A DNA stretch of 64,000 bases from a virus. The notes beneath the pieces are model-generated. The model did no database searches. It was not told the origin of the DNA and saw only the letters and a list, made by a program, of their open reading frames with translations. Position numbers and translations under genes: made by a program. The DNA lies in IMG/VR virus record IMGVR_UViG_3300045988_087758; one strand, written 5' to 3'. Of the stretch, positions 2,570 through 64,000 are shown piece by piece. Positions within the stretch are counted from its first letter, which is position 1. Each line of letters opens with the position of its first letter.

Positions 2570-5359
2570 TTATGCAGAATTGTGCGAACCGTTGAAGTAA
2601 GCATAACACCAATTCTCTCCATCAAAAATGAAATAGGTAAAAGTACCTGCTCTACCTATCTTTATTTTAGTCTGCAAACTGCCATTTGAATACATCTTCC
2701 CTGTATCGTAACCACCAGAGCTGTCATACTCGATATACACGTTTGACGACACTTTAGAGTAAATCAGCAAAGTCTGACCTACAACAGGACCAGCAGGCAA
2801 TTTTAGTGTAATACCACCTTTCGTAACTATCACTATACAATCAGAGCTACTTATTTGCCCGTTATAATTCATAATTCTCAGATTAGGAGCAATAACTCCT
2901 TGTATAGCACCGTTTGTCTGCAAAGCCGTTGGTGTACCTGTAAAACCCTTGGCAATAACATTTATAGCCAACGCAGGCGAATCTTTCTTACTCTGTTCAG
3001 AATAAATATACTGCACTGGTTCGTATTGGGTATTATAAGCATAATTTGTTGGAAGATTCATTTCGTTACTCGAACCTTTACAGACTATTCTTGCGGCGTT
3101 ACCAAGCCATACGGCACGAAAAGCATTATTGCCCGACGTATAAGAGAACTCCGTACAGGACACACCTACGCGAAAATAATCAGTAAGAAGTAAACCACCT
3201 CGGACAAATAACGGGCAATACTGAATACCAGATACAACAGTTGTACCATTATATTCTGTACCCTCCGCTTGCATAATATCCCCCCAATTATCATCCTTTT
3301 TAATGCTCCATATTCCGATTTTGCTATCTCCTGTGACATTAAGCTTAGTAGCTGTAATCTCCTGAGCATTGATACCTTTAGCTACAACGTCTCCTGCATT
3401 AATGAATTTCGCATTGAGCTTACCATTTTCAAACATCGCTGCTTCGTCATAACCCTCAGAAGGATTGGTTCTCGGGGTTTTTACCTGCACTTTGTTTCCG
3501 TACAGGGTGACTTGTTCGCTCGTAATCTCTATACCAGCCTTCTTCAAGGATGCTTTATCTACCAAATCGGTCTTCCGCTCGGTGAACTCGGTCATGGTAG
3601 CACCTACCTCCAACTTAGGTTGGCAGACATAAACCTCGCCTGCGCCATTCAGCTGGATATAAAGCTTAGATGGAAGATAACCATGAAACCTCATGTGTCC
3701 CCAATATCGTTTGTATTCTGTCGTAAGCTGATTAGGTATTTCGATGATAGAAGCATACCGTACGTTTAAAAAACGAGTACCTTGATTTACACTATCCTCG
3801 CTGAAAACAGAATCGCCTTCAGCGTTTCTATCGAACTGAGCATACAATCCAATAGAAGCCTTACCTTTTGCTAGGAAAGAGAAAATGTAATCAACGTCCA
3901 ATTCCATCGAGTCTGTAGCAAACTCCATGACAAGATACGTATTATTAGCGTTTGTGTTTTTGATGCGGAGAGCCATGCAGTCGCCATAATAGGCACGCTC
4001 ATAATCGGGTAGACCATTAGGGTTTAACGATTTAAGACTACCGCCTACTTCCAGAGTTCTGGCGTTGTCTATCATATTACCACCCACGTAATCATAATCT
4101 TGTTTAGAACGAGACCAGCCGTTGTATGTATCTCCCTCTTCCATCATAGGCTGACAGATATAAGCATCGGAAGTTACACAGAATGCGACCGCAAGATAGT
4201 TAGTGACAGCAGATGATGTATCTATCGTAAATGTGAACAGTTCCCATGTATTAGGAGAAGAGACATACATAGTATCTGTCTTATAGAAAGACATATCGCT
4301 GCTTGCATTAGCAATATCTGATGTACTATAAGCTCGAATCCTGAATTGAGCACTAGTACTGCTGCTTTTAACCCAACAGGAGAATGTGTATTTCTTACCT
4401 TTTGTGATAACGACACTTATGCCTCCGCTCTTCGTTCCATCCCAATATACACCATTTTCGTTACTGCTTGTGATATGTACGCAGTTGATACCATCCTTAC
4501 CAGTAGTACATTCAATGCGTGTACCCGAAGAGAAATGCAATGATTCCTGATTATGGAAATCGCTATTCACTAACAGATTCCTTCTGCCGACTGCATTAGA
4601 GCTTACTTCCAAAGAGATTCTCCTAGCTGTCTGTTCGATACTTGATGATACTTCCCTCAATTCGTCCTTCGATGCCTTATCATTAAGTTCATTAGAAACA
4701 GTATTATACTTATTGCTTATCTCCGTATACTTGCGCTGAAAGCTTTCGTCCGTCTCCAATACCGTCTTTACAAAGGTATTGGTGTTAACACGGAATGGCA
4801 GATAGGAATAGTAATCAGTACCATCCACAGTTACCTTCAATTTCACACCGCCAGCAGATGCAGGAACATATTTCCCTGTACCTACCGATTCCGTTGTTAT
4901 GCTTGTCAATTTAATAACATTGCTGCTGATATTAGCATTACAGTTATCCTTTGACACGATGCTTGCGCTGCACGATACAGCCTTACCACCCCTCGTTGCA
5001 CTAACAGTAGATGAATTGTTGTTGAACTGAGTAGATGATATATTTCCGTCTTTATCCGCATTGTATACAAGCTCAGAGGGAGATAGATTGATATTTATCG
5101 CATCCTTACCTGCCGCACCGTCCTTACCTTTATACGATACGCTAAAGCTTGTAGTAGAGTTCGTGTCAGAGTATACTACAATCGTTCTAGTCCACAGATA
5201 AGGCTTCGTGTCGGTTGTCGCAACAACCTTGTCGCTCCAGTTACCTGTAGGTATTTCTGTTCCACTTGCACTTATCTGATATGTAACAGATTTACTGATG
5301 ATAGTGACAGATGTACCGTCCTTTGGTTTCCTATGTAATGTGATTGATGTCGTTAACAT
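2570..5359 (-). CDS. tail fibre / receptor-binding-type structural protein
   Basis: 929-aa ORF in the tail module. N-terminal KPYLWTRTIVVYSD and a GKDGAAGKDA collagen-like tract. Ser/Thr/Asn/Gly-rich composition typical of fibres. Confidence 0.6.
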   Translation of the reverse strand: MLTTSITLHRKPKDGTSVTIISKSVTYQISASGTEIPTGNWSDKVVATTDTKPYLWTRTIVVYSDTNSTTSFSVSYKGKDGAAGKDAININLSPSELVYNADKDGNISSTQFNNNSSTVSATRGGKAVSCSASIVSKDNCNANISSNVIKLTSITTESVGTGKYVPASAGGVKLKVTVDGTDYYSYLPFRVNTNTFVKTVLETDESFQRKYTEISNKYNTVSNELNDKASKDELREVSSSIEQTARRISLEVSSNAVGRRNLLVNSDFHNQESLHFSSGTRIECTTGKDGINCVHITSSNENGVYWDGTKSGGISVVITKGKKYTFSCWVKSSSTSAQFRIRAYSTSDIANASSDMSFYKTDTMYVSSPNTWELFTFTIDTSSAVTNYLAVAFCVTSDAYICQPMMEEGDTYNGWSRSKQDYDYVGGNMIDNARTLEVGGSLKSLNPNGLPDYERAYYGDCMALRIKNTNANNTYLVMEFATDSMELDVDYIFSFLAKGKASIGLYAQFDRNAEGDSVFSEDSVNQGTRFLNVRYASIIEIPNQLTTEYKRYWGHMRFHGYLPSKLYIQLNGAGEVYVCQPKLEVGATMTEFTERKTDLVDKASLKKAGIEITSEQVTLYGNKVQVKTPRTNPSEGYDEAAMFENGKLNAKFINAGDVVAKGINAQEITATKLNVTGDSKIGIWSIKKDDNWGDIMQAEGTEYNGTTVVSGIQYCPLFVRGGLLLTDYFRVGVSCTEFSYTSGNNAFRAVWLGNAARIVCKGSSNEMNLPTNYAYNTQYEPVQYIYSEQSKKDSPALAINVIAKGFTGTPTALQTNGAIQGVIAPNLRIMNYNGQISSSDCIVIVTKGGITLKLPAGPVVGQTLLIYSKVSSNVYIEYDSSGGYDTGKMYSNGSLQTKIKIGRAGTFTYFIFDGENWCYAYFNGSHNSA

Positions 5360-6420: not shown

Positions 6421-6651
6421 TTATTTTTTAAATTTCATTAAATACTCTTCCAACTCTCTTGCGCTACCGAACATAGTGCCTTTGAGCTGTTTCAATCTCT
6501 CACTCTCATCACCGACAAGCAATGATGCATCCATCATTCCCTTCTCCGTAATAACCATCTTACTTTCTCCTTTGATATCAATAACGTTGTGAGTGATAAC
6601 ATCAAATCCAGCCAAGATAGCCATTTCCTCATCTGCCAATACGTATCTCAT
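6421..6651 (-). CDS. hypothetical small protein (fibre module)
   Basis: 76-aa ORF filling the gap between two fibre-module genes on the same strand. Confidence 0.4.
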   Translation of the reverse strand: MRYVLADEEMAILAGFDVITHNVIDIKGESKMVITEKGMMDASLLVGDESERLKQLKGTMFGSARELEEYLMKFKK

Positions 6652-6657
6652 ATTCTC

Positions 6658-7863
6658 CTAGTTAAAGATGAACGGATTGCCGTTCTCATCTGTATATACA
6701 TTGCCGTTTGCGTCAGTAGCAACCTTATACTCTTCCTTATAGTCATAGTCGAAGCAGGTTTCAACAAAGTTATCCTTCTGTGTATCACCCATGGTAAGGT
6801 CAGACAAGCGGAAAAATAACCCTTTTCCTTCTCCGAGATTCACATCAGATTCATAAGCAGTTGTACCAAGCAGTACCATCTTAATCACGTTTTCTGCGCA
6901 AGGCACGTCATGGTCTTTACATTTTACAATAGCTTCCTGATACATAATATCTGTATCTGGATAAATATCGCTCTCAACGCTCGGCTTTACCGATATTGCT
7001 TTATGCAATCTGTTGACTGTGCAGATTGTCTTTAAGCAAACCACCTTACCTCCAACAAGTACTTTAAGGAGATAAGTAGCCGCATTAGGCACAAGACGCA
7101 AATCAAGGATAATACTTGTAAGGGATAATGCCTGCAACTCATAGCCTACGCTCATTTTTACTTCGCTGCCGCTATCTGTGCGGTAGAGTTCCAAAGTATA
7201 GCCGCTTTTCTGAATCTCCTTACCTTTGCGCACTCTTATTGCTGCCGTGCGAAGATACTGCTCTCCGTCATTAATCTGCTGTTCTGATAACGAAGATGCT
7301 ATTCCGTGACTAACTTGATAGTCATACAAGAGCATATTATCATCAATGCAGGAATACATGAGGTTAAGTGGATAGTCCGTTTCCACGCTCCATGAATCCT
7401 GTGCGGCTTGAATTGTATAAAGTGTCTTCTCATCACTTTTAACTGGAATAAGCTCTTTATTACGGAAGTCGAACAACTGACCCTCGAAACGCAACTTGAT
7501 ACGTTCGTTCAGACCGATATTGCGCTTGATAATAAGCATACCCTTATTATCACCATTAGTAATGATGGAGTACTTTCCATTCCAGCTTGCTACACTCTCT
7601 ATCTTCTGCCCGTCCACGTACCATTGCATCTGTGACAGATGGGCGTTACTTCGAGTATTACCCTGCCAACTACCATCCCTTGCTGATGCGCTGACGATAG
7701 GGCTGATACCGCAAGGAACTGCTGCCGTTCCTTCTCGGTTAGGCTGCCATTCTCCACCGCTATAAAGCTGCGTAAGTGGAGATTCAGGGGTTGTGCAGGT
7801 CAATGAACAACCCGTAACCAATGGCGCATATCTACGCCGCATGAATTTCTTTTCCGTTCTCAT
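6658..7863 (-). CDS. tail-module structural protein
   Basis: 401-aa ORF, co-oriented and packed in the fibre module. No family recognised. Confidence 0.45.
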   Translation of the reverse strand: MRTEKKFMRRRYAPLVTGCSLTCTTPESPLTQLYSGGEWQPNREGTAAVPCGISPIVSASARDGSWQGNTRSNAHLSQMQWYVDGQKIESVASWNGKYSIITNGDNKGMLIIKRNIGLNERIKLRFEGQLFDFRNKELIPVKSDEKTLYTIQAAQDSWSVETDYPLNLMYSCIDDNMLLYDYQVSHGIASSLSEQQINDGEQYLRTAAIRVRKGKEIQKSGYTLELYRTDSGSEVKMSVGYELQALSLTSIILDLRLVPNAATYLLKVLVGGKVVCLKTICTVNRLHKAISVKPSVESDIYPDTDIMYQEAIVKCKDHDVPCAENVIKMVLLGTTAYESDVNLGEGKGLFFRLSDLTMGDTQKDNFVETCFDYDYKEEYKVATDANGNVYTDENGNPFIFN

Positions 7864-7896: not shown

Positions 7897-8283
7897 TTAC
7901 TCAAGTCCGAGTGTCTTGCAATCAGCATCAACGATAGCCTTCAAACGTGCTCGCTCTACAAGGAACTCCTTATAAGCAGCAGTCTTGATAGCTATCTCTG
8001 TTTTATCAGTAGTGATGCCAAGCTGAATAGCATTATACTCATTGATGAGCTTCTGTTCCTGATTACCATCCCACTTATCAGCAATGACCGCTTCGGTAAT
8101 CTTATTAGACGTGAGAGGTTCCCATACAATCACTTCCTGGCATTCGTACTGAGTTTTTAATTCTATACCCGAAGGCTTCTCTGTTGATTCTGCCTTCACC
8201 GTCTTGATGTCGTAGTGATAACGGTGACTTCCGTTTCCTACTGCCTCCAATACTGAAGGCTCATTATCGTAAATTACTTTCAT
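7897..8283 (-). CDS. hypothetical protein translationally coupled to the DGR reverse transcriptase
   Basis: 128-aa ORF. Its ATG (8283-8281) overlaps the RT stop TGA (8282-8280) as an ATGA overlap. Confidence 0.45.
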   Translation of the reverse strand: MKVIYDNEPSVLEAVGNGSHRYHYDIKTVKAESTEKPSGIELKTQYECQEVIVWEPLTSNKITEAVIADKWDGNQEQKLINEYNAIQLGITTDKTEIAIKTAAYKEFLVERARLKAIVDADCKTLGLE

Positions 8284-9320
8284 ATTGCAATCTTTTTAAA
8301 GTTATAATTATGTATATAATGGAACGCACCTATCTTCTCTAACAGATGTCTGCTATCGCTATGAGCCGTCCATCCTAACCAAGGGCTTATCCTCATCTTC
8401 AGTGCATCCTCCTTGATTCCTTTCTTTCTTGCGGCTTTCATTTCCCTACATAGGTTCTGTTTCGTTCTCTTACGCATAAGCTTCTGCTTGCGGAAGAACT
8501 GATAGCCTACGTAGTCCAATGCACGACCGCTCTTGTCGTATCTATTCATACCGATTTTGAATATCTGCCAATTTCCTTTAATCTTTAGCTTCAATTCTCC
8601 TTCGAGCTTGCATTTGATGGCTTTGCGAACTTTATGCAATACTTCTTTATTTTCCGCAAAGAATGTTATATCATCGGCATATTCTGTACTCTCGACTTTC
8701 AGCACTTCGTTCACCCAGTGCATGAAGTAAGCAAGATAAAGATTAGCCAAATACTGACTTGAATAGTTACCTATCGGCAATCCATCTGTAGAATTTATAA
8801 TCTCGTCAAGGAGATTCAATACATCAGTGTCCTTTATCTTCTTTCGGATAATCTTCTTCATAACCTCATGGTCGATGCTAGGATAGTACTTTACGATGTC
8901 TATCTTTAAGCAATACAGAGGTCTGTCAATAGGATGTCTTCTTATAATCTCGCCAACCCTTCTTGCGCATCCTTCTATTCCTCTTCCCTTGATGCAGCTA
9001 TATGTATTGTACGTAAATACGCTGCGCCATATAGGTTCAAGGATATTCAGTATCGCATGATGAACGATTCTGTCGGGAAAGTATGGTAATCTGTATATCA
9101 CTCTCTCCTTCGGCTCATGAATGGTGAATACGTCATACTTTGATGTTCTGAACGCCTTATTTTCCAGTATCTCATGCAGCTTCAACAGATTATCCTCTCT
9201 ATTCTTATCGAACACTCGCACACCATAGGTATTTTTCTTTCCCTTCCTAGCCTTTTCATCAGCTAATCTGAGATTATCCATTGATATGATTTTCTCGTAG
9301 AGATAACCAATCCTTCTCAT
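8280..9320 (-). CDS. DGR-type reverse transcriptase
   Basis: 346-aa ORF with RT motifs: catalytic YADD (TEYADDITFF) and the DGR-typical LPIGNYSSQYLANLYL ([I/L]GxxxSQ) motif. It lies directly 3' of the template repeat. Confidence 0.9.
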   Translation of the reverse strand: MRRIGYLYEKIISMDNLRLADEKARKGKKNTYGVRVFDKNREDNLLKLHEILENKAFRTSKYDVFTIHEPKERVIYRLPYFPDRIVHHAILNILEPIWRSVFTYNTYSCIKGRGIEGCARRVGEIIRRHPIDRPLYCLKIDIVKYYPSIDHEVMKKIIRKKIKDTDVLNLLDEIINSTDGLPIGNYSSQYLANLYLAYFMHWVNEVLKVESTEYADDITFFAENKEVLHKVRKAIKCKLEGELKLKIKGNWQIFKIGMNRYDKSGRALDYVGYQFFRKQKLMRKRTKQNLCREMKAARKKGIKEDALKMRISPWLGWTAHSDSRHLLEKIGAFHYIHNYNFKKIAI

Positions 9321-9455
9321 CTTTTTTGCTATTTTGCTTCCTTACTCCGAGTCTTCGACTATTAGCGATATTGCTGATACCTACCAACACGTTTCTGAGT
9401 CCCTAAATTTTTCACCAAGAGGTGAGGTTATGATTCCGATATATAATATTTAACC

Positions 9456-11412: not shown

Positions 11413-14400
11413 TCATACACTCAGTGTTGCCGAAATTTCATTGGTTTTGTTACCGATTTGCCAAGCCTTGAAGGTAAACACGACACCGAAAGTATTCTTA
11501 TTCTCAGCTCCAAGGTCATTCTCGTTCTCAGTAAATGCGATATTGATAGTGCCTTTAAAGTTCTGAGCCTTAGATGTGGCGTTCCATGCCGCATCTTCCT
11601 GTTTGTCACCACTATCTCTTTCCACGCTCCAATCCCAACCACTCGATGTATCAACGATAGAATCACCACGGACAACTGAGCATACGACATCAATCGTTTC
11701 ACCCCAATCAAGGGTGTCTTGCCCACGCAAATCAATCAGTAGCTTATTCCGTTGTATTGCGGTCGTAGCCTTCCAATAAGGTGAATCCTCAGATGGCTCA
11801 TCGGTAGTGGTCTGTCCTTCCGATACTATGCAGAGCCATCTTGTGCCAAGCCAAGTGACCTCATCATAGTAGCTGTATTCAGTACCTTCCTTCCAGTCAC
11901 CCAGATAGATGGGAGTCCATACCTTCTCACCGCTGACGTTTACCATATTGAAGTATTTGGTAACGATATTGATGCCATCGAAACCAACGTCAAAGATAGA
12001 TTTATCCTTTAAAGTATAGGAGTTGATTCCACGGTACATAGTGAACTTCGGTGCAGAAACTCCTTCGGTCTCCATCATCAAAAGGTGCTGTCTGCTTGTA
12101 TCACTTCTGTTACCCATAAGGACGATGGTATCACCTGCGGCAGGATTGTCCGAGCCTTCCATGCAGTTGTCCTTCGCAATCTGAATCCATGCGAACTTCT
12201 TTCCGTCATATAGTTCGTGACCTTCACCATCGGTGATTACCTCATTCTCTGCTGATACCTTAGTGACAAGTCTCCAATAGTCCTTGTTGCTGACGTTCTC
12301 ATAGACACCCGATGCAATGTTGAATGTCTTGCACCTAACTTGGTCTTCCACCTTGAATGAGTTGATGGTAGCGGTCGTTCCATCATCGGCTAAGAGGTAG
12401 CACTGCCACCCAATCAGCTCATTCGTCGTCTCGCTGTATACTTCCTTGATGTAGCTTATCTTGCCAGCAGCAGGGGAGAGGACGATGTTACCGCCAACGT
12501 AGCTGAGTTCACGTATCAAGAGGGTGTTGAAGATTGCCTTACCCCAAACAATCAAATCCGTGAGCAGCATTTGAAACTTTCCATCGCTTCTCTGTTTAAT
12601 AGCAAAACCACTCTGCTCTGCTTCGTTAAAGTCGAGTGACTTCAATAAGTTCACTATCACACTAGATAGGATAGCGTTGCCGCTGCCATCAATACTGAAC
12701 TCGTTAGAGTGACCGAGGAAGAAGCCTTGCAAGAATTTCTGTACCTTCTGAAATGTGATTGTTCCGCTAGCTATATCATCTGTCAGTTTAGAGAGATACA
12801 TTTTATCGGTTATACTAGCATTAAAGCTATTGGTATTACTACCCCCAGCCATACTAGATAGAGATTTAACCGTTTCTCCTTTTACTGCATCAATAATCTG
12901 CTTTACATCACTCTTTGTAACTTCCAACGAATTTACAAGCTCAATTTCAACTTCTGCCAGATCTTCGTTATCAACCTTTACTGAGTAGTTGCTGACGAAA
13001 ACTTCGTGACTAATAAGATTTCCATCGTTATCCGAATCGCCTTGTATCTGTATTGACAGCTTTGCATTCTCATTCAACTTGCTTGCAAAGTCAGGATTCT
13101 CTTGCAAGAATACGCGAGAAAACTTAACAGAGTAGTTAAATTGGTCTGTATTGTTTTCGCTCATGTGCTTGATAAGAGCATCATCTAGTCTTTTCTCTGC
13201 TGCCGTTACAAGAACCTTTGGAGGTTTAATGCCTGTAATGACAAACAAATCTCCCTTTTGCGGTTTAAAGCCAGCACTCGCGTTTGGCATTACGATACCT
13301 AGTGTTGATGTATCTTTCTGAACGCAAATCCAAAGTTCTTCTTTCGTTGAATCTTGGTTTGATTTGTTATCCTTAACGTATGTGTCGCTAAGAATATAAT
13401 CACCTTTGCTATTCATTTTTCCACTATCTGACTTCAAATTTCCATTTCCGTCAGTAAGTACATTATTGTAGCATTTATTATTTGCACTATCCCAATAACA
13501 CCCGATAACAAATGAGCAAGCAGGGCATCCATTACTCTTGATGAGATTTATCTTTGCTGATTCACTAGCCAAAGCATGAGCAAATAAGTCAAATCCAAAA
13601 TCACCATTAAACTTATGTAGCTTTATATAGAAATAGCTATGAATATAATTTCCGTCACTATCCTTTACATCGCTATCTTCTTTATCAAAAGCAACATCTG
13701 CAATCTCTCCAAATAGCTGCCCTTCCGCATTTACAATTCCATTAATAGTTGGCTTTATATCATCAAAAGTAACAGTTCCTTGATGAGGATTGCCTTTCTT
13801 ATACAAGTTTACAAACTCGTAATATCCACTACCGCTTTGCAACTTGTGGGTGTTATTCAAAGCATAATAGAAACGCTCTGCACCTTTCGTGTTGCGATAT
13901 ATAGAAGGCATAAGTACCGATGATGGTGCAATCCAGACTCTATCAGTAACCATTACCTTCACTGCATTATCCTCAGTTCCAGTATAAACCTTATTGAATC
14001 CATATCTGTCACCATCTTTTACAAATTGATAGTCATATTCAATGCAATTTGCCTCGCCGATTCCACTTACATTAATACCGGCATCACTGTAAGGAATATA
14101 CTTGTCACCATTCCTCCATTCATATTCAGATTTTAACTCGTATAAGAACTCAATACTTCCACTAAAAGCAACATTCCAACTATCCGCGCCATAAAAGTCA
14201 TTAATGCCAGCACTATTTTTGTACACCTTGCATTTGTAAGAAAACTCAGATTCTATAGATAATGTGAAATCTCCATCCTCTTCAAATGTGTATGTAGCAA
14301 CACTTCCAAAACTCATCTTATTAGAGATAGTCTTGTACAACTCTTTTCCTTTGAATATATATATGCTCTTGACGGCATTACCAACGTTTGTTATATAGTC

Positions 14401-15531
14401 TTTTCTCGAAACAGAACTATTTAATTCATAGCTAAAATTCAAGTTCGTCAAATCTACCGACTGCCCCTTAATCGCGCTGATTGGAATACTAAACGAAAAT
14501 CGACAAGTAACAGTTGGATTAGACTGATTATCAGCTTGTGTTAAGTTAGATGGGGTAGTAAATCTATCGAATGTATGCGAGCTTACATCTACACTTCCAT
14601 TGTAACTTTTTCCTTCCTTGCTTTTATAAAGGATAAGAGTATCATTATATCTTGAATCTTTAAGGAACTTTGATAATTCTACACTAACTTTATCCTTGCT
14701 GATATTCTCTGTATTGAACACTGCCTCGCCAAACTCGTCATCATTAGGATAATAATATGGCATGTTATCAGATGAACCGTAACCTGTTATCATATCAACT
14801 ATCTTATAGTTCGCATTCTCCTTTGACACGGACATAAGGGCATCACTACTACCATATTTTATAGGTGTATCTGTTAAGTCGTGCTGTACCTTGCCGACAT
14901 GACAAACATTGCCATCCCAGTAGTAATCAAGTTCAAAAGTTGTATTGATAAGTTGCAAGACATCAGTCAAATATTGGTCTTCAAATGATACTTCCTTAAC
15001 TTCATCTGTTCCATATCCTTCGTCAACAACAACGTAATATCCCTTGTATTCATCTGTAGGACGATACAATCCACAATATGCCATTGAGCTATTAATGCGA
15101 GCTACAAACTCATAGATAGTTCCACCAAACGTGAACTTTGTCTGATTTGAGCGGTATCCGTCTTTATCCTGAGTATCAACATCATCAACGACAACATCAA
15201 AGAATAGAGTGTTATCAAGCAATTCTCTTCTAGATGTAAAAGTGATTTCGCTCTTCCACATTCTAGACGAATTATCCTTTGTAGAGTTTGGCGTATAGGA
15301 CGCAAAGAATCTATCGCCATTGTACTCTACGAACTCTTCCTTCTTCCATTGCAAAGGTTCAGAAGAATATATTGTAGCAGTAAGGGTAGGAGCACCACCC
15401 ATACGCTTTGCATCGTAGGTATATGATGATACAATAGCAGGGTTAGCTTCCGATGGGAACAAACCGATAATTTCATTACCAGTGTTCTCATCGTAAGTCA
15501 ACTTCTGTATGTATAATGATTCTGCCTTCAT
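11413..15531 (-). CDS. large tail/baseplate structural protein (Tal-like)
   Basis: 1372-aa ORF between the portal-like gene and the DGR target. The N-terminus resembles the N-domain of siphovirus tail-associated proteins. Assignment rests mainly on size and context. Confidence 0.5.
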   Translation of the reverse strand: MKAESLYIQKLTYDENTGNEIIGLFPSEANPAIVSSYTYDAKRMGGAPTLTATIYSSEPLQWKKEEFVEYNGDRFFASYTPNSTKDNSSRMWKSEITFTSRRELLDNTLFFDVVVDDVDTQDKDGYRSNQTKFTFGGTIYEFVARINSSMAYCGLYRPTDEYKGYYVVVDEGYGTDEVKEVSFEDQYLTDVLQLINTTFELDYYWDGNVCHVGKVQHDLTDTPIKYGSSDALMSVSKENANYKIVDMITGYGSSDNMPYYYPNDDEFGEAVFNTENISKDKVSVELSKFLKDSRYNDTLILYKSKEGKSYNGSVDVSSHTFDRFTTPSNLTQADNQSNPTVTCRFSFSIPISAIKGQSVDLTNLNFSYELNSSVSRKDYITNVGNAVKSIYIFKGKELYKTISNKMSFGSVATYTFEEDGDFTLSIESEFSYKCKVYKNSAGINDFYGADSWNVAFSGSIEFLYELKSEYEWRNGDKYIPYSDAGINVSGIGEANCIEYDYQFVKDGDRYGFNKVYTGTEDNAVKVMVTDRVWIAPSSVLMPSIYRNTKGAERFYYALNNTHKLQSGSGYYEFVNLYKKGNPHQGTVTFDDIKPTINGIVNAEGQLFGEIADVAFDKEDSDVKDSDGNYIHSYFYIKLHKFNGDFGFDLFAHALASESAKINLIKSNGCPACSFVIGCYWDSANNKCYNNVLTDGNGNLKSDSGKMNSKGDYILSDTYVKDNKSNQDSTKEELWICVQKDTSTLGIVMPNASAGFKPQKGDLFVITGIKPPKVLVTAAEKRLDDALIKHMSENNTDQFNYSVKFSRVFLQENPDFASKLNENAKLSIQIQGDSDNDGNLISHEVFVSNYSVKVDNEDLAEVEIELVNSLEVTKSDVKQIIDAVKGETVKSLSSMAGGSNTNSFNASITDKMYLSKLTDDIASGTITFQKVQKFLQGFFLGHSNEFSIDGSGNAILSSVIVNLLKSLDFNEAEQSGFAIKQRSDGKFQMLLTDLIVWGKAIFNTLLIRELSYVGGNIVLSPAAGKISYIKEVYSETTNELIGWQCYLLADDGTTATINSFKVEDQVRCKTFNIASGVYENVSNKDYWRLVTKVSAENEVITDGEGHELYDGKKFAWIQIAKDNCMEGSDNPAAGDTIVLMGNRSDTSRQHLLMMETEGVSAPKFTMYRGINSYTLKDKSIFDVGFDGINIVTKYFNMVNVSGEKVWTPIYLGDWKEGTEYSYYDEVTWLGTRWLCIVSEGQTTTDEPSEDSPYWKATTAIQRNKLLIDLRGQDTLDWGETIDVVCSVVRGDSIVDTSSGWDWSVERDSGDKQEDAAWNATSKAQNFKGTINIAFTENENDLGAENKNTFGVVFTFKAWQIGNKTNEISATLSV

Positions 15532-57587: not shown

Positions 57588-57661
57588 GGTTTCATAGCTC
57601 AGGTGGTTAGAGCGGTCGGCTGTTAACCGATAGGTCGTAGGTTCGAATCCTGCTGAAACCG
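57588..57661 (+). tRNA. tRNA-Asn (anticodon GTT)
   Basis: Hand-folded cloverleaf: ggtttca/tgaaacc acceptor, gctc-aggtggtta-gagc D arm, gtcgg-ctGTTaa-ccgat anticodon arm, gtagg-ttcgaat-cctgc T arm. 74 nt. Confidence 0.9.
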
Positions 57662-58687: not shown

Positions 58688-58758
58688 GGTTCTATGGTGT
58701 AACGGTAGCACAAGAGATTTTGGTTCTCTTAGAGATTGTTCGAGTCAGTCTAGAACTA
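58688..58758 (+). tRNA. tRNA-Gln (anticodon TTG)
   Basis: Hand-folded: ggttcta/tagaact acceptor, gtgt-aacggta-gcac D arm, agaga-ttTTGgt-tctct anticodon arm, gattg-ttcgagt-cagtc T arm. 71 nt. Confidence 0.85.
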
Positions 58759-58894
58759 CTGCATTTTTTTCATCTATGTACTTCTGTTTGTGAAAATAGT
58801 AGTGCTTTATTTGGAATCGGCACTTTTTAAGTGTTTTGTTTACTTAAATAATTTATTTTTTTTCTCAACTGCTTGCGACAAGTCGTTGAGTTTT

Positions 58895-60028: not shown

Positions 60029-63000
60029 ATGAATACAAAAGAATTAGACGGTTATCTGAAATTTCTCTCAGAAAAACAGACTGCCGTTCAAGAAAGCGGT
60101 TTTGATGTTGAGGATAGCGATTTGAATCCTCAACTATTTCCATTTCAAAAGTATTGCGTTAAACGAGCATTGAAAGTTGGTCGCTTCGCTATGTTTGAGG
60201 ACTGTGGATTGGGTAAAGAGCAGCCTTATTCAGAACCTGTACTAACACCTACTGGTTTTGTTGAAATGGGAAGTCTGAAAGTTGGTGATTATGTTATTTC
60301 CGCAAATGGAAATAAAACTAAAATCACAAACATATATGAGCAAGGTGCTAAAGATGTATATAAGGTGTCTTTTAGCGATGGAACATACGCAAGATGCGGA
60401 TTAAATCATTTATGGAATGTTAGAACCTTAAATGATTGTTCTAGAAATAATGACTATCGCACAATGGAATTGAAAGACATTATGGCTGATTATATTGGGG
60501 TCAGAAACGATGATAAAAGATACCCTAATAAACCACGTAATGTTTATAAATATTCCATTCCTGTGAACGGAAAAGTATCTTGGGATATTGCTGAAAATAT
60601 CACAATTCATCCTTATCTTCTTGGTGTTATACTCGGTGATGGAAGTATCTCTCAAAGAGGTGTAAAAATCTCAAAACCGAACAAGTCAATCCATGATAAA
60701 TTACTTACGTTAGACCTTCATGGCGATGTTGTTTCTGATTTTTACAAAGACGGAATGTCTTATTCCGTACATAACGAGGTAACAAATAAGACTAGTTGGA
60801 CGCAAAAAGAGTTAGAAAAACTAAACTTGATGGGGCACAAGTCTATCGACAAGTTTATTCCTTCTAACTATCTTTATGCGTCAGTAGAGAGTAGGGAAGA
60901 ATTACTGCAAGGTTTGATAGATACTGATGGACACTTGGTTAAGGGTGGAAGCGTTATTGAATATAGTACTGCATCCGAAAGAATTATGAATGACGTTTCT
61001 TTTCTTGCTCGTTCATTAGGTTACATGGTTAGGGTGAAAAAACGTATGTCTTACTATAATAAGAATGGGGAACGTTTTCCTAATTTCCGTGTTTATCTTT
61101 ACAAGAATTGTAGAAAGCTAAAGAATATTGTCAATATTGAGAAAGAAGGACAAGAGAAACAACGTTGTATCTATGTTGAAGATAGTTCTCACTTGTATCT
61201 AACTCGCGACTTTATTGTAACTCACAATACCGTTCAGCAATTAGAGTGGGCACAACAAGTGGTTAACCACATTAATAAACCTGTTCTTATTCTTGCACCA
61301 TTGGGTGTTATAGGTCAGACAATCAAAGAAGGAGTTCATTTCGGGTACAAAGTAACTGAGATTGCTCTTACGACATTCGACCAGGACTTGGATGCTGGTA
61401 TCTATATTACCAACTATGATAATATGGATAACATAGATGCTTATCTGTTTGGGGGGGTCGTTCTTGATGAGAGTTCTATATTGAAGAACTTTGCAGGTAA
61501 GACAAGAACCGCTCTTATTGAGGACTTCAAAAATACACCTTATAAGTTGTGTTGTACTGCAACGCCTTCTCCAAACGACACAACCGAGCTTTGCAATCAT
61601 GCAGAGTTCTTGAATATTATGACAAGAAACGAAATGCTTGCGATGTATTTTGTACATGATGGCGGTTCTACATCTGATTGGAGACTGAAAGGTCATGCAC
61701 AACAAGACTTTTGGGATTTCGTTTCTACTTGGGCAGTAATGCTCAGTAAACCATCTGATATTGGATTTAGCGATGATGGGTATAACCTTCCACCGATGAA
61801 TGTTATTGAAGATTACATCGTTACCGAGAAGAAAGATAACGGTGCTCTCTTTAATGATATGGCAGTGTCTGCAACAGATTTCCACAAAGAGCTTAGAAGA
61901 ACTATCAAACAACGTCTTGAAAGAGTTGCTGAGATTATTAATGGTTCTTCTGAGAATTGGATTATCTGGATTGGGCAAGATGAAGAAGGCAAGGTTCTTC
62001 GTGAATTGATTCCCGATGCAGTTGAGGTTAAGGGTAGTGACAACAAACAATACAAGAAAGATAAGTTGCTAGGATTTGCCAATAACGAGTTCAGAGTGCT
62101 TATCACTAAGTTGAAGATTGCATCATTCGGTCTTAACTATCAGAACTGCCGTAATCAGATGTTTGCTTCACTTGATTTTTCATTTGAAGCTACCTATCAA
62201 GGTATCAGACGTTCATATCGTTTCGGTCAGAAAGATGAGGTAAATATCCACATCATTACTCTTGATACGATGCAGAACGTGAAATCATCATTCGAGGAAA
62301 AGCAAAAGCAATTCCTCGAAATGCAGAAGTCTATGACCGAAGCTATGTGTCGTAACATCAATAATCAGATAAAGTTAAAGAAGATGGAAGTTGATAATAA
62401 GTATCAATCAAAAAACTGTGACATTCGCCTAGGCGATTGTGTGCAGCTCATTCAGAATGTTCCCGATGAGAGTATTGGATTCTCTATTTTCTCTCCACCA
62501 TTTGCGGAACTTTACACTTATTCCGATAAGTTGGAAGATATGGGTAACTCAAAGGACTATAAGGAGTTCTTTACTGCCTTCAAATATCTTGTTAAAGAAC
62601 TATACAGAGTTCTTTGGAGCGGTCGTAACGTTGCCGTACATTGTATGGACTTGCCTATCCAAAAAGGTAAGGAAGGATATATTGGTCTTCGTGACTTCTC
62701 AGGAATGATTCTTGAAGCATTCCAAGAAGTAGGTTTTATTTATCATTCAAGAGTAACTATTTGGAAGAACCCAGTGACGGAAATGCAGAGAACAAAGGCA
62801 CTCGGTCTTCTTCATAAGCAAGTAAAGAAAGATGCGGCTATGAGTCGTGTCGGCATCCCTGACTATCTTATGGTATTCCGCAAGGAAGGAGAACATGAAC
62901 ACCCAGTTCATTGTGATATATCTGTTGATACTTGGCAAAAGTACGCTTCGCCAGTGTGGATGGATATTGATTACTCTAAAACACTTAATGGTATTAAGGG

Positions 63001-63256
63001 GCGTGACGAGAATGACGAGAAGCATATCTGTCCATTACAACTTGAAACAATCGAGCGAGCAATAACTCTTTGGAGTAACAAGGGTGATAAGGTTCTTACA
63101 CCATTCCTTGGAATCGGTTCTGAGGTGTATCAGTCAATTAAGATGGGTCGCTTTGGTGTTGGCTTTGAATTAAAGGATAGTTACTTTAATGAAGCTGTAA
63201 AGAATTGCAAAGCTGCCGAGGCTGATACAAATGCGCCTACGTTGTTCGATATGTAG
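60029..63256 (+). CDS. SNF2/DEAD-like helicase fused to a C-terminal N6/N4 DNA methyltransferase, interrupted by an intein
   Basis: 1075-aa ORF. Walker A GLGK|...|T is split. VVLDESS (DExx box), CCTATPSPND (motif III). MTase motif IV IFSPPFAELY, and FLGIGSE (FxGxG) near the C-terminus, giving a beta-class motif order. Confidence 0.8.
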   Translation: MNTKELDGYLKFLSEKQTAVQESGFDVEDSDLNPQLFPFQKYCVKRALKVGRFAMFEDCGLGKEQPYSEPVLTPTGFVEMGSLKVGDYVISANGNKTKITNIYEQGAKDVYKVSFSDGTYARCGLNHLWNVRTLNDCSRNNDYRTMELKDIMADYIGVRNDDKRYPNKPRNVYKYSIPVNGKVSWDIAENITIHPYLLGVILGDGSISQRGVKISKPNKSIHDKLLTLDLHGDVVSDFYKDGMSYSVHNEVTNKTSWTQKELEKLNLMGHKSIDKFIPSNYLYASVESREELLQGLIDTDGHLVKGGSVIEYSTASERIMNDVSFLARSLGYMVRVKKRMSYYNKNGERFPNFRVYLYKNCRKLKNIVNIEKEGQEKQRCIYVEDSSHLYLTRDFIVTHNTVQQLEWAQQVVNHINKPVLILAPLGVIGQTIKEGVHFGYKVTEIALTTFDQDLDAGIYITNYDNMDNIDAYLFGGVVLDESSILKNFAGKTRTALIEDFKNTPYKLCCTATPSPNDTTELCNHAEFLNIMTRNEMLAMYFVHDGGSTSDWRLKGHAQQDFWDFVSTWAVMLSKPSDIGFSDDGYNLPPMNVIEDYIVTEKKDNGALFNDMAVSATDFHKELRRTIKQRLERVAEIINGSSENWIIWIGQDEEGKVLRELIPDAVEVKGSDNKQYKKDKLLGFANNEFRVLITKLKIASFGLNYQNCRNQMFASLDFSFEATYQGIRRSYRFGQKDEVNIHIITLDTMQNVKSSFEEKQKQFLEMQKSMTEAMCRNINNQIKLKKMEVDNKYQSKNCDIRLGDCVQLIQNVPDESIGFSIFSPPFAELYTYSDKLEDMGNSKDYKEFFTAFKYLVKELYRVLWSGRNVAVHCMDLPIQKGKEGYIGLRDFSGMILEAFQEVGFIYHSRVTIWKNPVTEMQRTKALGLLHKQVKKDAAMSRVGIPDYLMVFRKEGEHEHPVHCDISVDTWQKYASPVWMDIDYSKTLNGIKGRDENDEKHICPLQLETIERAITLWSNKGDKVLTPFLGIGSEVYQSIKMGRFGVGFELKDSYFNEAVKNCKAAEADTNAPTLFDM
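60218..61228 (+). mobile_element. intein with LAGLIDADG homing-endonuclease domain (aa 64-400 of the host ORF)
   Basis: It sits between GLGK and T of the P-loop. Hint block B-like ARCGLNHLW. Two LAGLIDADG motifs (LLGVILGDGSI, LLQGLIDTDGH). C-terminal CIYVEDSSHLYLTRDFIVTHN followed by the +1 Thr. The first residue is Glu, not Cys/Ser. Confidence 0.75.
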
Positions 63257-63289
63257 CTTTTCATTTGCCCTTATATTTTAAGTTTTGGA

Positions 63290-63545
63290 ATCCTTTAATT
63301 AGGTTACAGCGATTATCCATTCAATCGTCCGAAGCGGATTAGCCTTAGCCCCGAATGGAATTAGGGAGCTACGTTAGGAATGAATGCATAGGCACGTCAG
63401 AATGTTCGTCCAAGTTCTGACCTCTGCGGTCGATGATTAAAAGAAGCGAAAACAACGGTATTGTCGGCAAGAAACCATTCTATAACATTGGCGATGGGCG
63501 CACAACCCCACTTCGGTGGGAGATTTATTTATTAATTTAAATTTG
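63290..63545 (+). ncRNA. candidate omega-RNA of the IscB locus (boundaries approximate)
   Basis: About 290 nt of ORF-free sequence directly 5' of the IscB ATG. Hairpins at 63316-63359 (tccattc/gaatgga), 63396-63421 (gtcagaa/ttctgac) and 63507-63520 (cccac-ttcg-gtggg). This position matches the known omega-RNA location. Confidence 0.55.
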
Positions 63546-63550
63546 AGTTT

Positions 63551-64000
63551 ATGATTTACGTAAGAAGTAAAGAAGGCAGTGTATTAATGCCAACAGAACG
63601 TTGTGGTAAGATAGGTTATCTTCTTCGTCACGGAAAGGCTCACGTAGTCAGCCGTGTTCCATTTGTTGTACAGTTGGATTACGATAGTACCACCTACACG
63701 CAAGATGTGAGTCTTGGCATTGATGCTGGCTCAAAGCACATTGGTGTTTCGGCAAGTTCCGAGAAGAAGGAGATGCTTGCAGCACAAGTCGAGTTAAGAA
63801 GTGATATTGTGAAATTACTTTCTACTCGTAGGGAGTTGAGACGGAATAGAAGAAACCGCAAGACACGCTACCGCAAGGCTCGTTTTGATAATCGCAAGAA
63901 GAAAGATGGTTGGCTAGCACCAAGTGTTGAACAAAAGATTGAGAGCCACTTGAAGGTTATTCGTTTGGTTCATAAGTTACTTCCTATCACGAAGACCACA
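63551..64000 (+). CDS. iscB: IscB-type RNA-guided nuclease, N-terminal 150 aa (truncated by window end)
   Basis: My own translation (not in the ORF track because there is no stop): MIYVRSKEGSVLMPTERCGKIGYLLRHGKAHVVSRVPFVVQLDYDSTTYTQDVSLGIDAGSKHIGVSASS...TRRELRRNRRNRKTRYRKARFDNRKKKDGWLAPSVEQKIESHLKVIRLVHKLLPITKTT. It shows a PLMP-domain motif (LMPT), RuvC-I (LGIDAGSK) and an Arg-rich bridge helix. Confidence 0.85.
   Translation, partial: MIYVRSKEGSVLMPTERCGKIGYLLRHGKAHVVSRVPFVVQLDYDSTTYTQDVSLGIDAGSKHIGVSASSEKKEMLAAQVELRSDIVKLLSTRRELRRNRRNRKTRYRKARFDNRKKKDGWLAPSVEQKIESHLKVIRLVHKLLPITKTT

Follow-up and report, generated by a model that had tools for sequence, protein, structure and literature searches.

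Why does a phage genome carry the gene of an RNA-guided nuclease, and whose interest does the enzyme serve? The question is raised by the end of a 64,000-nucleotide stretch of viral DNA (IMG/VR record IMGVR_UViG_3300045988_087758; "the window" denotes this whole stretch), where a structured RNA, the ωRNA, precedes the beginning of an iscB gene. IscB is the ancestor of Cas9, and what is known of how it works comes from bacterial chromosomes, in which an excised element is restored by homing. A preliminary description of the window, made from the letters alone, had proposed either a passenger insertion sequence (IS) or a nuclease used against competitors or the host. Of these, the present data favour a selfish mobile element over an anti-host weapon because of its discrete ends, its presence/absence polymorphism and its apparently flank-derived guide. 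A mobile IscB/ωRNA element behaving as a selfish RNA-guided homing nuclease is thus the most likely reading, with a probability of about 0.7.

An intact IscB protein

The iscB frame opens at an ATG at 63551 (+) and continues past the end of the window, which holds its first 150 codons; the preliminary description had quoted the same truncated open reading frame (ORF). Pfam RRXRR (PF14239) covers residues 2-149 of this ORF (E=2.6e-50, 171 bits with a cut-off of 25), bearing out the proposed order of PLMP domain, RuvC-I and bridge helix. These three parts constitute the RRXRR module, the N-terminus of IscB. The window was extended by exact-sequence look-up of the 1075-aa protein encoded upstream, which led to contigs of ~83.4-83.8 kb in 61 data blocks; carrying that protein, these contigs are the same phage as the window. 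One of them, L005, has an exact overlap with the window end (window coordinate minus 50028 gives the L005 coordinate) and contains the full iscB ORF at 13523-14776, ending at window-equivalent 64804. This ORF is intact, encodes 417 aa and harbours both RRXRR and HNH domains (Pfam). The HNH domain and the RuvC-II/III motifs, which the preliminary description could only anticipate, are therefore present outside the window in the same phage, and no early frameshift or stop interrupts the frame.

The 417-aa protein matches the IscB entries of the PDB (7utn, 7xht, 8csz and others) with E ~1e-50 (phmmer). Its N-terminal module aligns to OgeuIscB residues 4-115, and the motifs aligned to OgeuIscB are GIDAG (D58), IEVAQFD (E152), HH (209-210) and HAADAFCIA (H295, D298), the HNH domain being inserted between RuvC-II and RuvC-III. 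Residues 335-417 are present and conserved among copies, while the alignment to the PDB sequences covers residues 2-334 only. Furthermore, iscB is under purifying selection, with a median ratio of non-synonymous to synonymous substitution rates (dN/dS) of 0.098 over 91 pairs from 14 representative copies. With the start anchor used, 33 of 37 iscB ORFs are full length; those of L018-L020 failed the start-anchored reading, yet their tblastn matches are contiguous.

Three database homologues (P0005, P0006 and P0011; 88-96% identical) are frameshifted at, near or just before the A-rich stretch encoding AQFDAQKIK, which could be decay, a homopolymer assembly error or a regulated event. Such frameshifts near AQFDAQKIK in close homologues would suit a decaying, inactive IS remnant that is passively carried, as would the weakened right-end hairpin A and terminal inverted repeat of the window copy and a guide that may be orphaned (both described below). 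This view was rejected as very unlikely: the same phage, found in 61 data blocks, has an intact 417-aa ORF with all catalytic motifs, dN/dS is ~0.1 and the base pairs of the ωRNA are maintained.

The ωRNA scaffold

The 294-nt spacer at 63257-63550 follows the stop codon of the upstream gene (63256) and, in agreement with the preliminary description, has no + strand ORF of >=40 aa. An ωRNA had been placed here, and cmscan matches Rfam HEARO (RF02033) at 63327-63506 (+) with E=1.5e-14 and 73.1 bits, a score below the gathering score of 83. HEARO is the RNA later recognised as the ωRNA of IscB. While the match thus falls short of the threshold, the placement is upheld by covariation. In an alignment of 26 distinct copies, the RNAalifold consensus contains 69 pairs, with 99.1% of cells paired, compensatory changes at 14 pairs (1-3 in slid-partner controls) and a covariation score of 0.220 (0.128 in shuffles), figures that lean in favour of the structure as close relatives were aligned and the structure was predicted on the same alignment. 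Double changes in six different helices are clear despite this favourable alignment.

The long-range helix P1, whose column pair 16/64 covaries (14 copies with C-G, nine with U-A), encloses two small hairpins (~63290-63305 and 63309-63328) that correspond to the 42 nt inserted into P1 in the Rfam consensus. In place of this helix, cmscan had taken a mini-hairpin at 63327-63339 as P1. At the other end lies the CCCAC-UUCG-GUGGG stem-loop already noticed in the preliminary description. Three of its five pairs covary (CCCAC/GUGGG vs CACCU/AGGUG), and with the T-run behind it, the stem-loop forms the one terminator-like site detected between 62900 and 64000, making it the likely 3' end of the ωRNA. 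A second ωRNA copy was not found in the window. A scan covering the sigma-70 type only gave no sigma-70-like promoter on the + strand in 62900-63550; since none precedes the guide, read-through from the upstream helicase-methylase gene is the likeliest source of the transcript.

The covariation also bears on two other explanations. In the first, the enzyme would be a phage nuclease with a fixed internal guide (63311-63326) directed against the host chromosome or unrelated invaders. The cmscan match starts at 63327, and the window and MT835610, a GenBank phage record discussed below, agree in all 16 nt that precede this start. However, this stretch is hairpin B, a covarying part of the scaffold inside the P1 that starts at 63282, and the variable sequence lies outside 63277; the fixed guide was rejected, and this explanation is even less probable than decay. 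In the second, the gene would encode a conventional protein-only HNH homing endonuclease of the sort common in phages. Related phage genes are indeed labelled 'HNH endonuclease' in GenBank, and the intergenic position is that of free-standing homing endonuclease genes. The RRXRR/RuvC architecture, the match to solved IscB structures and the conserved, covarying HEARO RNA leave this explanation with a negligible probability.

Ends of the element

The selfish-element reading requires a discrete unit, and one is delimited by comparison of copies. Homology among 35 copies (blastn) starts at L005 13249, that is, window 63277, and almost always ends at L005 14753-14776. The left boundary, 63276/63277 (a slash marks a junction throughout), is identical in L001 and L009-L042, while the flanks differ between sites; the element-free ("empty") alleles L002, L003 and L004 diverge exactly there. 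The unit thus measures ~1525 bp, from window 63277 to about 64801, and contains only the ωRNA gene and iscB. The window holds its left 724 nt, and its right end lies ~800 nt beyond. The ends that the preliminary description had proposed to look for have thereby been located. The left terminus is (A)TTCAAGTTYCGGAAGCC... and the right one ...GGAAGAAAGGACTTCCGAAAGTTGAAT; the TAG that ends iscB in the window phage is placed immediately beyond the right boundary.

Comparison of the termini (window 63277-63297 and L005 14750-14773, plus L001, L016 and L028) revealed an imperfect terminal inverted repeat, ATTCAAGTTCCGGAAG / CTTCCGAAAGTTGAAT, of 17-27 nt with 78-88% complementarity. Among the four copies tested, it ranks first of all inverted pairs in three (L001, L028 and L016) but is weak in the window copy. 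To our knowledge, a terminal inverted repeat is not a described feature of IS200/605 elements. Subterminal hairpins are present, and that of the right end (RE in IS200/605 terms) covaries (AGCC/GGCT, AGTCA/TGACT, GTAGTT/AACTAC). The window copy carries matching changes at both termini, TTTAAG...TTAAAT vs TTCAAG...TTGAAT elsewhere. A target-site duplication was looked for at the junctions of the copies and rejected, as none was found. On the sequence evidence, the element would be classed as a non-autonomous IS200/605-type OMEGA element, its terminal inverted repeat being atypical.

Distribution, insertion sites and empty alleles

Scanning IMG/VR with the IscB protein yielded 34 further phage contigs with 84-95% identity. 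In a megablast search of the phage collection, the sole GenBank phage record with nucleotide similarity was MT835610 (human faeces), which matches window 63280-64000 only, at 86.8% identity, with different genes on both sides. Among 185,579 species-representative genomes there is one close relative, 87% identical, on a 15.6-kb contig in a Lachnospiraceae metagenome-assembled genome; a single contig of this kind was judged too weak to name a host. The lineage is therefore strongly enriched in phages (34 IMG/VR loci vs one relative in species genomes), and it is found mostly in phages of the human gut.

The element sits in at least 17 different phage contexts with distinct flanks, and across all loci and further scans empty alleles were found for 17 sites, often in large excess: ~52 empty vs ~7 full (plus three with a solo ωRNA) at the L001 site, 110 vs two occupied at the L013 site and 73 vs two occupied at the L039 site. 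At the window's own locus, the siblings L002, L003 and L004 share the window sequence up to ...CTTTTCATTTGCCCTTATAT (63257-63276) and continue without the element. Sister copy L009 has the element at this locus with the same right junction and a left junction 26 nt further right, while L011 and L014, which belong to the window's lineage, have this site empty and carry the element ~1 kb downstream. Conversely, the window itself is an empty allele of the L010/L012 site (52337/52338, +; TAAAAG after the junction) and of the L015 site (51658/51659, +; TGGTAG after the junction). The IscB proteins of these lineage-mates are the closest to that of the window (92-95% aa identity vs 84-89% for the rest), which argues for movement within the lineage.

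Only one insertion, L039, is clean: the empty allele ...TTCAGGTA/TAACAATTT... becomes ...TTCAGGTA/element/TAACAATTT..., with a mere 3-nt GTA ambiguity and with TAACA adjoining the iscB-distal end. At most other sites, a motif abutting this end is obscured by the loss of neighbouring DNA. A simple insertion was rejected at the window site, where L004 has seven extra nt (TATGCAA) and L002 and L003 carry a ~115-nt hairpin/T-run segment, and at the L001 site, where ~215 nt of a small ORF have given way to the element and the first eight codons of that ORF remain. As a rule, the left junction is found 10-23 nt past a start codon or coincides with the upstream stop codon, and the right junction is 3-10 nt short of the next start codon.

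Some variants of the element and its sites deserve mention in their own right. Where the upstream stop is displaced (L010/L012 ~2727, L021-L024 ~2728), the element starts with TTCTAG or TCCTAG, not TTCAAG, and these starts restore an in-frame stop for the upstream phage gene. Solo ωRNA mini-elements of ~330 nt consist of the scaffold and the last ~45 nt of the right end, without iscB; in other phages, full elements are present at the sites concerned, and the mini-element in L026 lies ~700 nt downstream of a full copy. The ~115-nt segment at the window's insertion site (L002 5043-4925, -; L003 4884-4781, -; absent from L004 and the window) contains nested hairpins, CACGCAA...TTGCGTG and AATCGGTG...CACCGATT, followed by a T-run, and may be a terminator or another small insert. 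The window's insertion site looks like a hotspot.

Putative guide and target motif

In IscB systems, the guide sits just outside the ωRNA-side end of the element. Since P1 starts 6 nt inside the element, the guide here would be the flanking phage DNA at ~63261-63276, so that each copy would draw its guide from its own flank. With the 5' end of the RNA placed by this reasoning, the register is uncertain by 1-2 nt. The putative guide, TCATTTGCCCTTATAT, has no other match with <=3 mismatches in the window.

If empty alleles are the targets, a target-adjacent motif (TAM) would be expected directly after their junctions. The motif W-R-R stands there at 9 of 13 sites (window background 0.152, binomial p=1.7e-5), a rule and register chosen after these first 13 sites had been seen. 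Among four sites fetched afterwards, which include the clean L039 (TAACAA), W-R-R fits three (p approximately 0.012) and NWRRNA two; the combined count for W-R-R is 12/17. With the last flank base taken as N, NWRRNA fits 5 of the 13 sites, against a background of 0.05. The putative motif, ~N-W-R-R, resembles the TAM of OgeuIscB, published as NWRRNA (PMC12660989). The element's own first bases (TTC, TTT, TCC, CTT) are never W-R-R, which would protect the occupied locus. Flanks at the iscB-distal end of occupied alleles were also considered as a source of the TAM and rejected (weak W-A signal, W-R-R in 6/10).

The abundance of such targets bears on another explanation, in which the element has been co-opted as a weapon in phage competition: IscB would cut co-infecting siblings that have no element, by way of marker exclusion or interference, to the net benefit of the carrier and not just to the spread of the element. 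This would agree with the phage-enriched distribution of the lineage (34 IMG/VR loci vs one close relative among 185,579 species genomes), with the commonness of empty alleles that combine a guide match and a TAM-like motif (110 vs two at the L013 site), with the strong purifying selection on IscB and with the inter-phage interference documented for protein-only homing endonucleases (cited in PMC13565253). Computationally, it is indistinguishable from selfish homing. However, the low occupancy of most sites speaks against a strong advantage, and the window guide has no TAM-like neighbour in the known empty alleles. The weapon is considered unlikely, though less so than decay.

Proposed mechanism

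Under selfish RNA-guided homing, the transcript of the ωRNA gene would begin with ~16 nt of neighbouring phage sequence as its guide and would be bound by IscB, a nuclease with RuvC and HNH domains. The complex is predicted to cut DNA in which a match to the guide is followed by a TAM of ~N-W-R-R. This cleavable configuration would arise only in element-free copies of the locus, be it the joint left by excision or the site of a co-infecting sibling phage, whereas the occupied locus, with TTYAAG at the TAM position, would be spared. Recombinational repair from an occupied genome would then reinstall the element (homing). To reach new sites, the element would need a Y1 TnpA in trans because the phage encodes none: Pfam found no Y1_Tnp among the 36 window ORFs of 100-230 aa, a crude HUH/Y regular expression found none either, and no tnpA lies in the 10 kb past the window end. 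If transposase and nuclease read the same TAM, the element would insert immediately before a W-R-R-type motif; such shared reading, as well as the IscB/TnpB homing mechanism, has been published (PMC10055086). The remnant of the disrupted gene may later be trimmed, while element-free alleles would remain cleavable targets.

Several observations weigh against this account. The 17-27-nt imperfect inverted repeat formed by the ends is atypical of IS200/605, the HEARO score lies under its gathering threshold, and the W-R-R rule was set post hoc. At most sites the occupied allele is without 7 to ~215 nt of the empty allele, so that either secondary deletions or some route other than TnpA peel-and-paste must be invoked. 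Finally, the empty alleles of the window site, ...CCCTTATAT/ATGCAT or /TATGCA, do not fit W-R-R, and the guide of the window copy may be non-functional against them. The sister copy L009 abuts ...CGGTGCGG/TGGAAC, which fits. The window copy has probably undergone a secondary 26-nt deletion on the guide side that changed its guide, which may now be without a cleavable partner other than the precise excision joint, TATAT/TAGCCC, which fits W-R-R.

A broader picture may be drawn more tentatively, and we hold it to be somewhat short of an even chance. A phage-specialised IscB lineage would pass between co-infecting gut phages as a naturally occurring RNA-guided gene drive. Its guide would be whatever phage DNA adjoins the ωRNA, and deletions adjacent to the element would re-programme it; copies whose new guide is next to W-R-R in the prevailing element-free allele would spread by homing, replacing small phage genes and creating boundaries to genetic exchange, and solo ωRNAs would ride on IscB supplied in trans.

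Phage context

The window belongs to a tailed phage, as its large terminase, portal, tape measure and tail proteins attest, so the claimed carriage in a phage genome is sound; a reverse transcriptase is also encoded. The coordinates of the features are collected in Table 1. The helicase/methyltransferase neighbour named in the preliminary description is indeed a SNF2 helicase-DNA N6/N4 methylase fusion, and a detail that had escaped notice is its LAGLIDADG intein, located at roughly aa 277-348 and beyond (Pfam Hom_end, LAGLIDADG_3). The protein has 1075 aa in the window and 738 aa, without the insert, in siblings L002 and L003. Two different selfish nuclease elements therefore adjoin here, the LAGLIDADG intein and the IscB element. 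The tRNA array claimed nearby amounts to two tRNAs only (Asn at 57588, Gln at 58688); the equivalent region of sibling contig L004 has four tRNA genes. The reverse transcriptase and the RT-17 RNA that directly adjoins it, near the tail genes, look like a diversity-generating retroelement. No CRISPR repeat array was found in the 4.5 kb before the element or in the 3 kb after it.

Table 1. Features of the IscB/ωRNA locus, its phage surroundings and related mini-elements (window coordinates unless a contig is named).
Feature	Position	Strand	Details
Putative 16-nt guide	63261..63276	+	phage DNA just outside the element, 5 nt past the methylase stop
Element terminus (RE in IS200/605 terms) and linker	63277..63281	+	TTTAA here, TTCAA consensus; left arm of the terminal inverted repeat
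ωRNA scaffold, HEARO-type	63277..63530	+	Rfam HEARO; RNAalifold structure of 26 copies
P1 long-range helix	63282..63335	+	63282-63288 GUUUUGG pairs with 63329-63335 CCGAAGC; 7 pairs
Terminal stem-loop CCCAC-UUCG-GUGGG, then U-rich tail	63507..63520	+	terminator-like site and covariation
iscB codons 1-150	63551..64000	+	PLMP domain, RuvC-I (D58 in GIDAG), Arg-rich bridge helix; Pfam RRXRR
Flanking phage gene, outside the element	60029..63256	+	SNF2 helicase-DNA N6/N4 methylase fusion with LAGLIDADG intein; Pfam
tRNA-Asn (GTT)	57588-57661	+	
tRNA-Gln (TTG)	58688-58759	+	
Reverse transcriptase	8280-9320	-	PHROG 1423, E=8e-108; near tail genes
Rfam RT-17 RNA	9322-9429	-	51.7 bits, above gathering; directly adjoins the reverse transcriptase
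Solo ωRNA mini-elements	L026 4944-5290; L052 ~6530-6862 (-); L074; L103 ~4770-5103 (-)		HEARO hits in all

Significance

Homing into co-infecting phages has so far been put forward only as a theoretical possibility, in a 2026 review (PMC13565253), and full-text literature searching turned up no work on how IscB moves or is guided in phages. In the population described here, the same unit occupies many alternative sites and coexists with abundant empty alleles, solo ωRNAs and junction variants, so that RNA-guided homing between genomes could be tested directly with natural donor and recipient pairs. The locus merits follow-up for the number of its sites, the replacement of genes, the guide-changing junction variants, the solo ωRNAs and the TAM-like motif in empty alleles. 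It also offers a compact IscB of 417 aa along with naturally occurring combinations of putative guide, target and TAM. Deposited phage genomes already contain IscB homologues, and the kind of element is itself known, this copy being new. Annotations as 'HNH endonuclease' in phage genomes can hide RNA-guided enzymes.

Comparison with known systems

The closest system in sequence is OgeuIscB-ωRNA from a human gut metagenome (7UTN, 7XHT, 8CSZ), which shares the domain order, the catalytic motifs and an upstream HEARO-type ωRNA with a guide, putative in the present case, at its 5' end. It differs in length (496 aa vs 417 aa here), and since only residues 2-334 are aligned, the C-terminal, TAM-reading part is left outside the comparison; moreover, the TAM here is deduced from natural sites. 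The full-length HEARO model (RF02033) aligns, including its pseudoknot-flanking and long-range helices, whereas in this clade P1 has two hairpins inside it and begins 45 nt before the match given by cmscan. Compared with CRISPR-Cas9, the unit consists of an ωRNA and iscB only and has no nearby repeat array.

In organisation, the IscB elements of Geobacillus stearothermophilus (Meers et al., PMC10055086) are the closest, and the homing on element-free sites proposed here follows their logic; D58, H209 and H210 of the present protein have the residue numbers mutated in the catalytically dead dIscB of that work. Those elements are chromosomal, have a co-resident TnpA shown to mobilise them and use the TAM TTCAT (PMC10055086), while the present one is carried by phages, has imperfect inverted-repeat ends and has lost adjacent phage DNA at most sites. 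The lack of a tnpA near the phage iscB fits the finding that ~1.5% of iscB genes have one nearby (PMC10055086).

Among phages, RRXRR-type proteins occur in records of Clostridium phage c-st and of Staphylococcus Silviavirus phages, annotated as HNH endonuclease or hypothetical protein and only 34-41% identical; HEARO RNA has been noted in Silviavirus genomes (PMC13346280). The element also recalls the free-standing homing endonuclease genes of T4-like phages (Seg, Mob; PMC13565253), which likewise lie between conserved genes directly upstream of the next start codon, are present or absent among close relatives and replace small ORFs. The difference is that the target would here be read by an RNA copied from the flank, so that specificity would follow the insertion site automatically.

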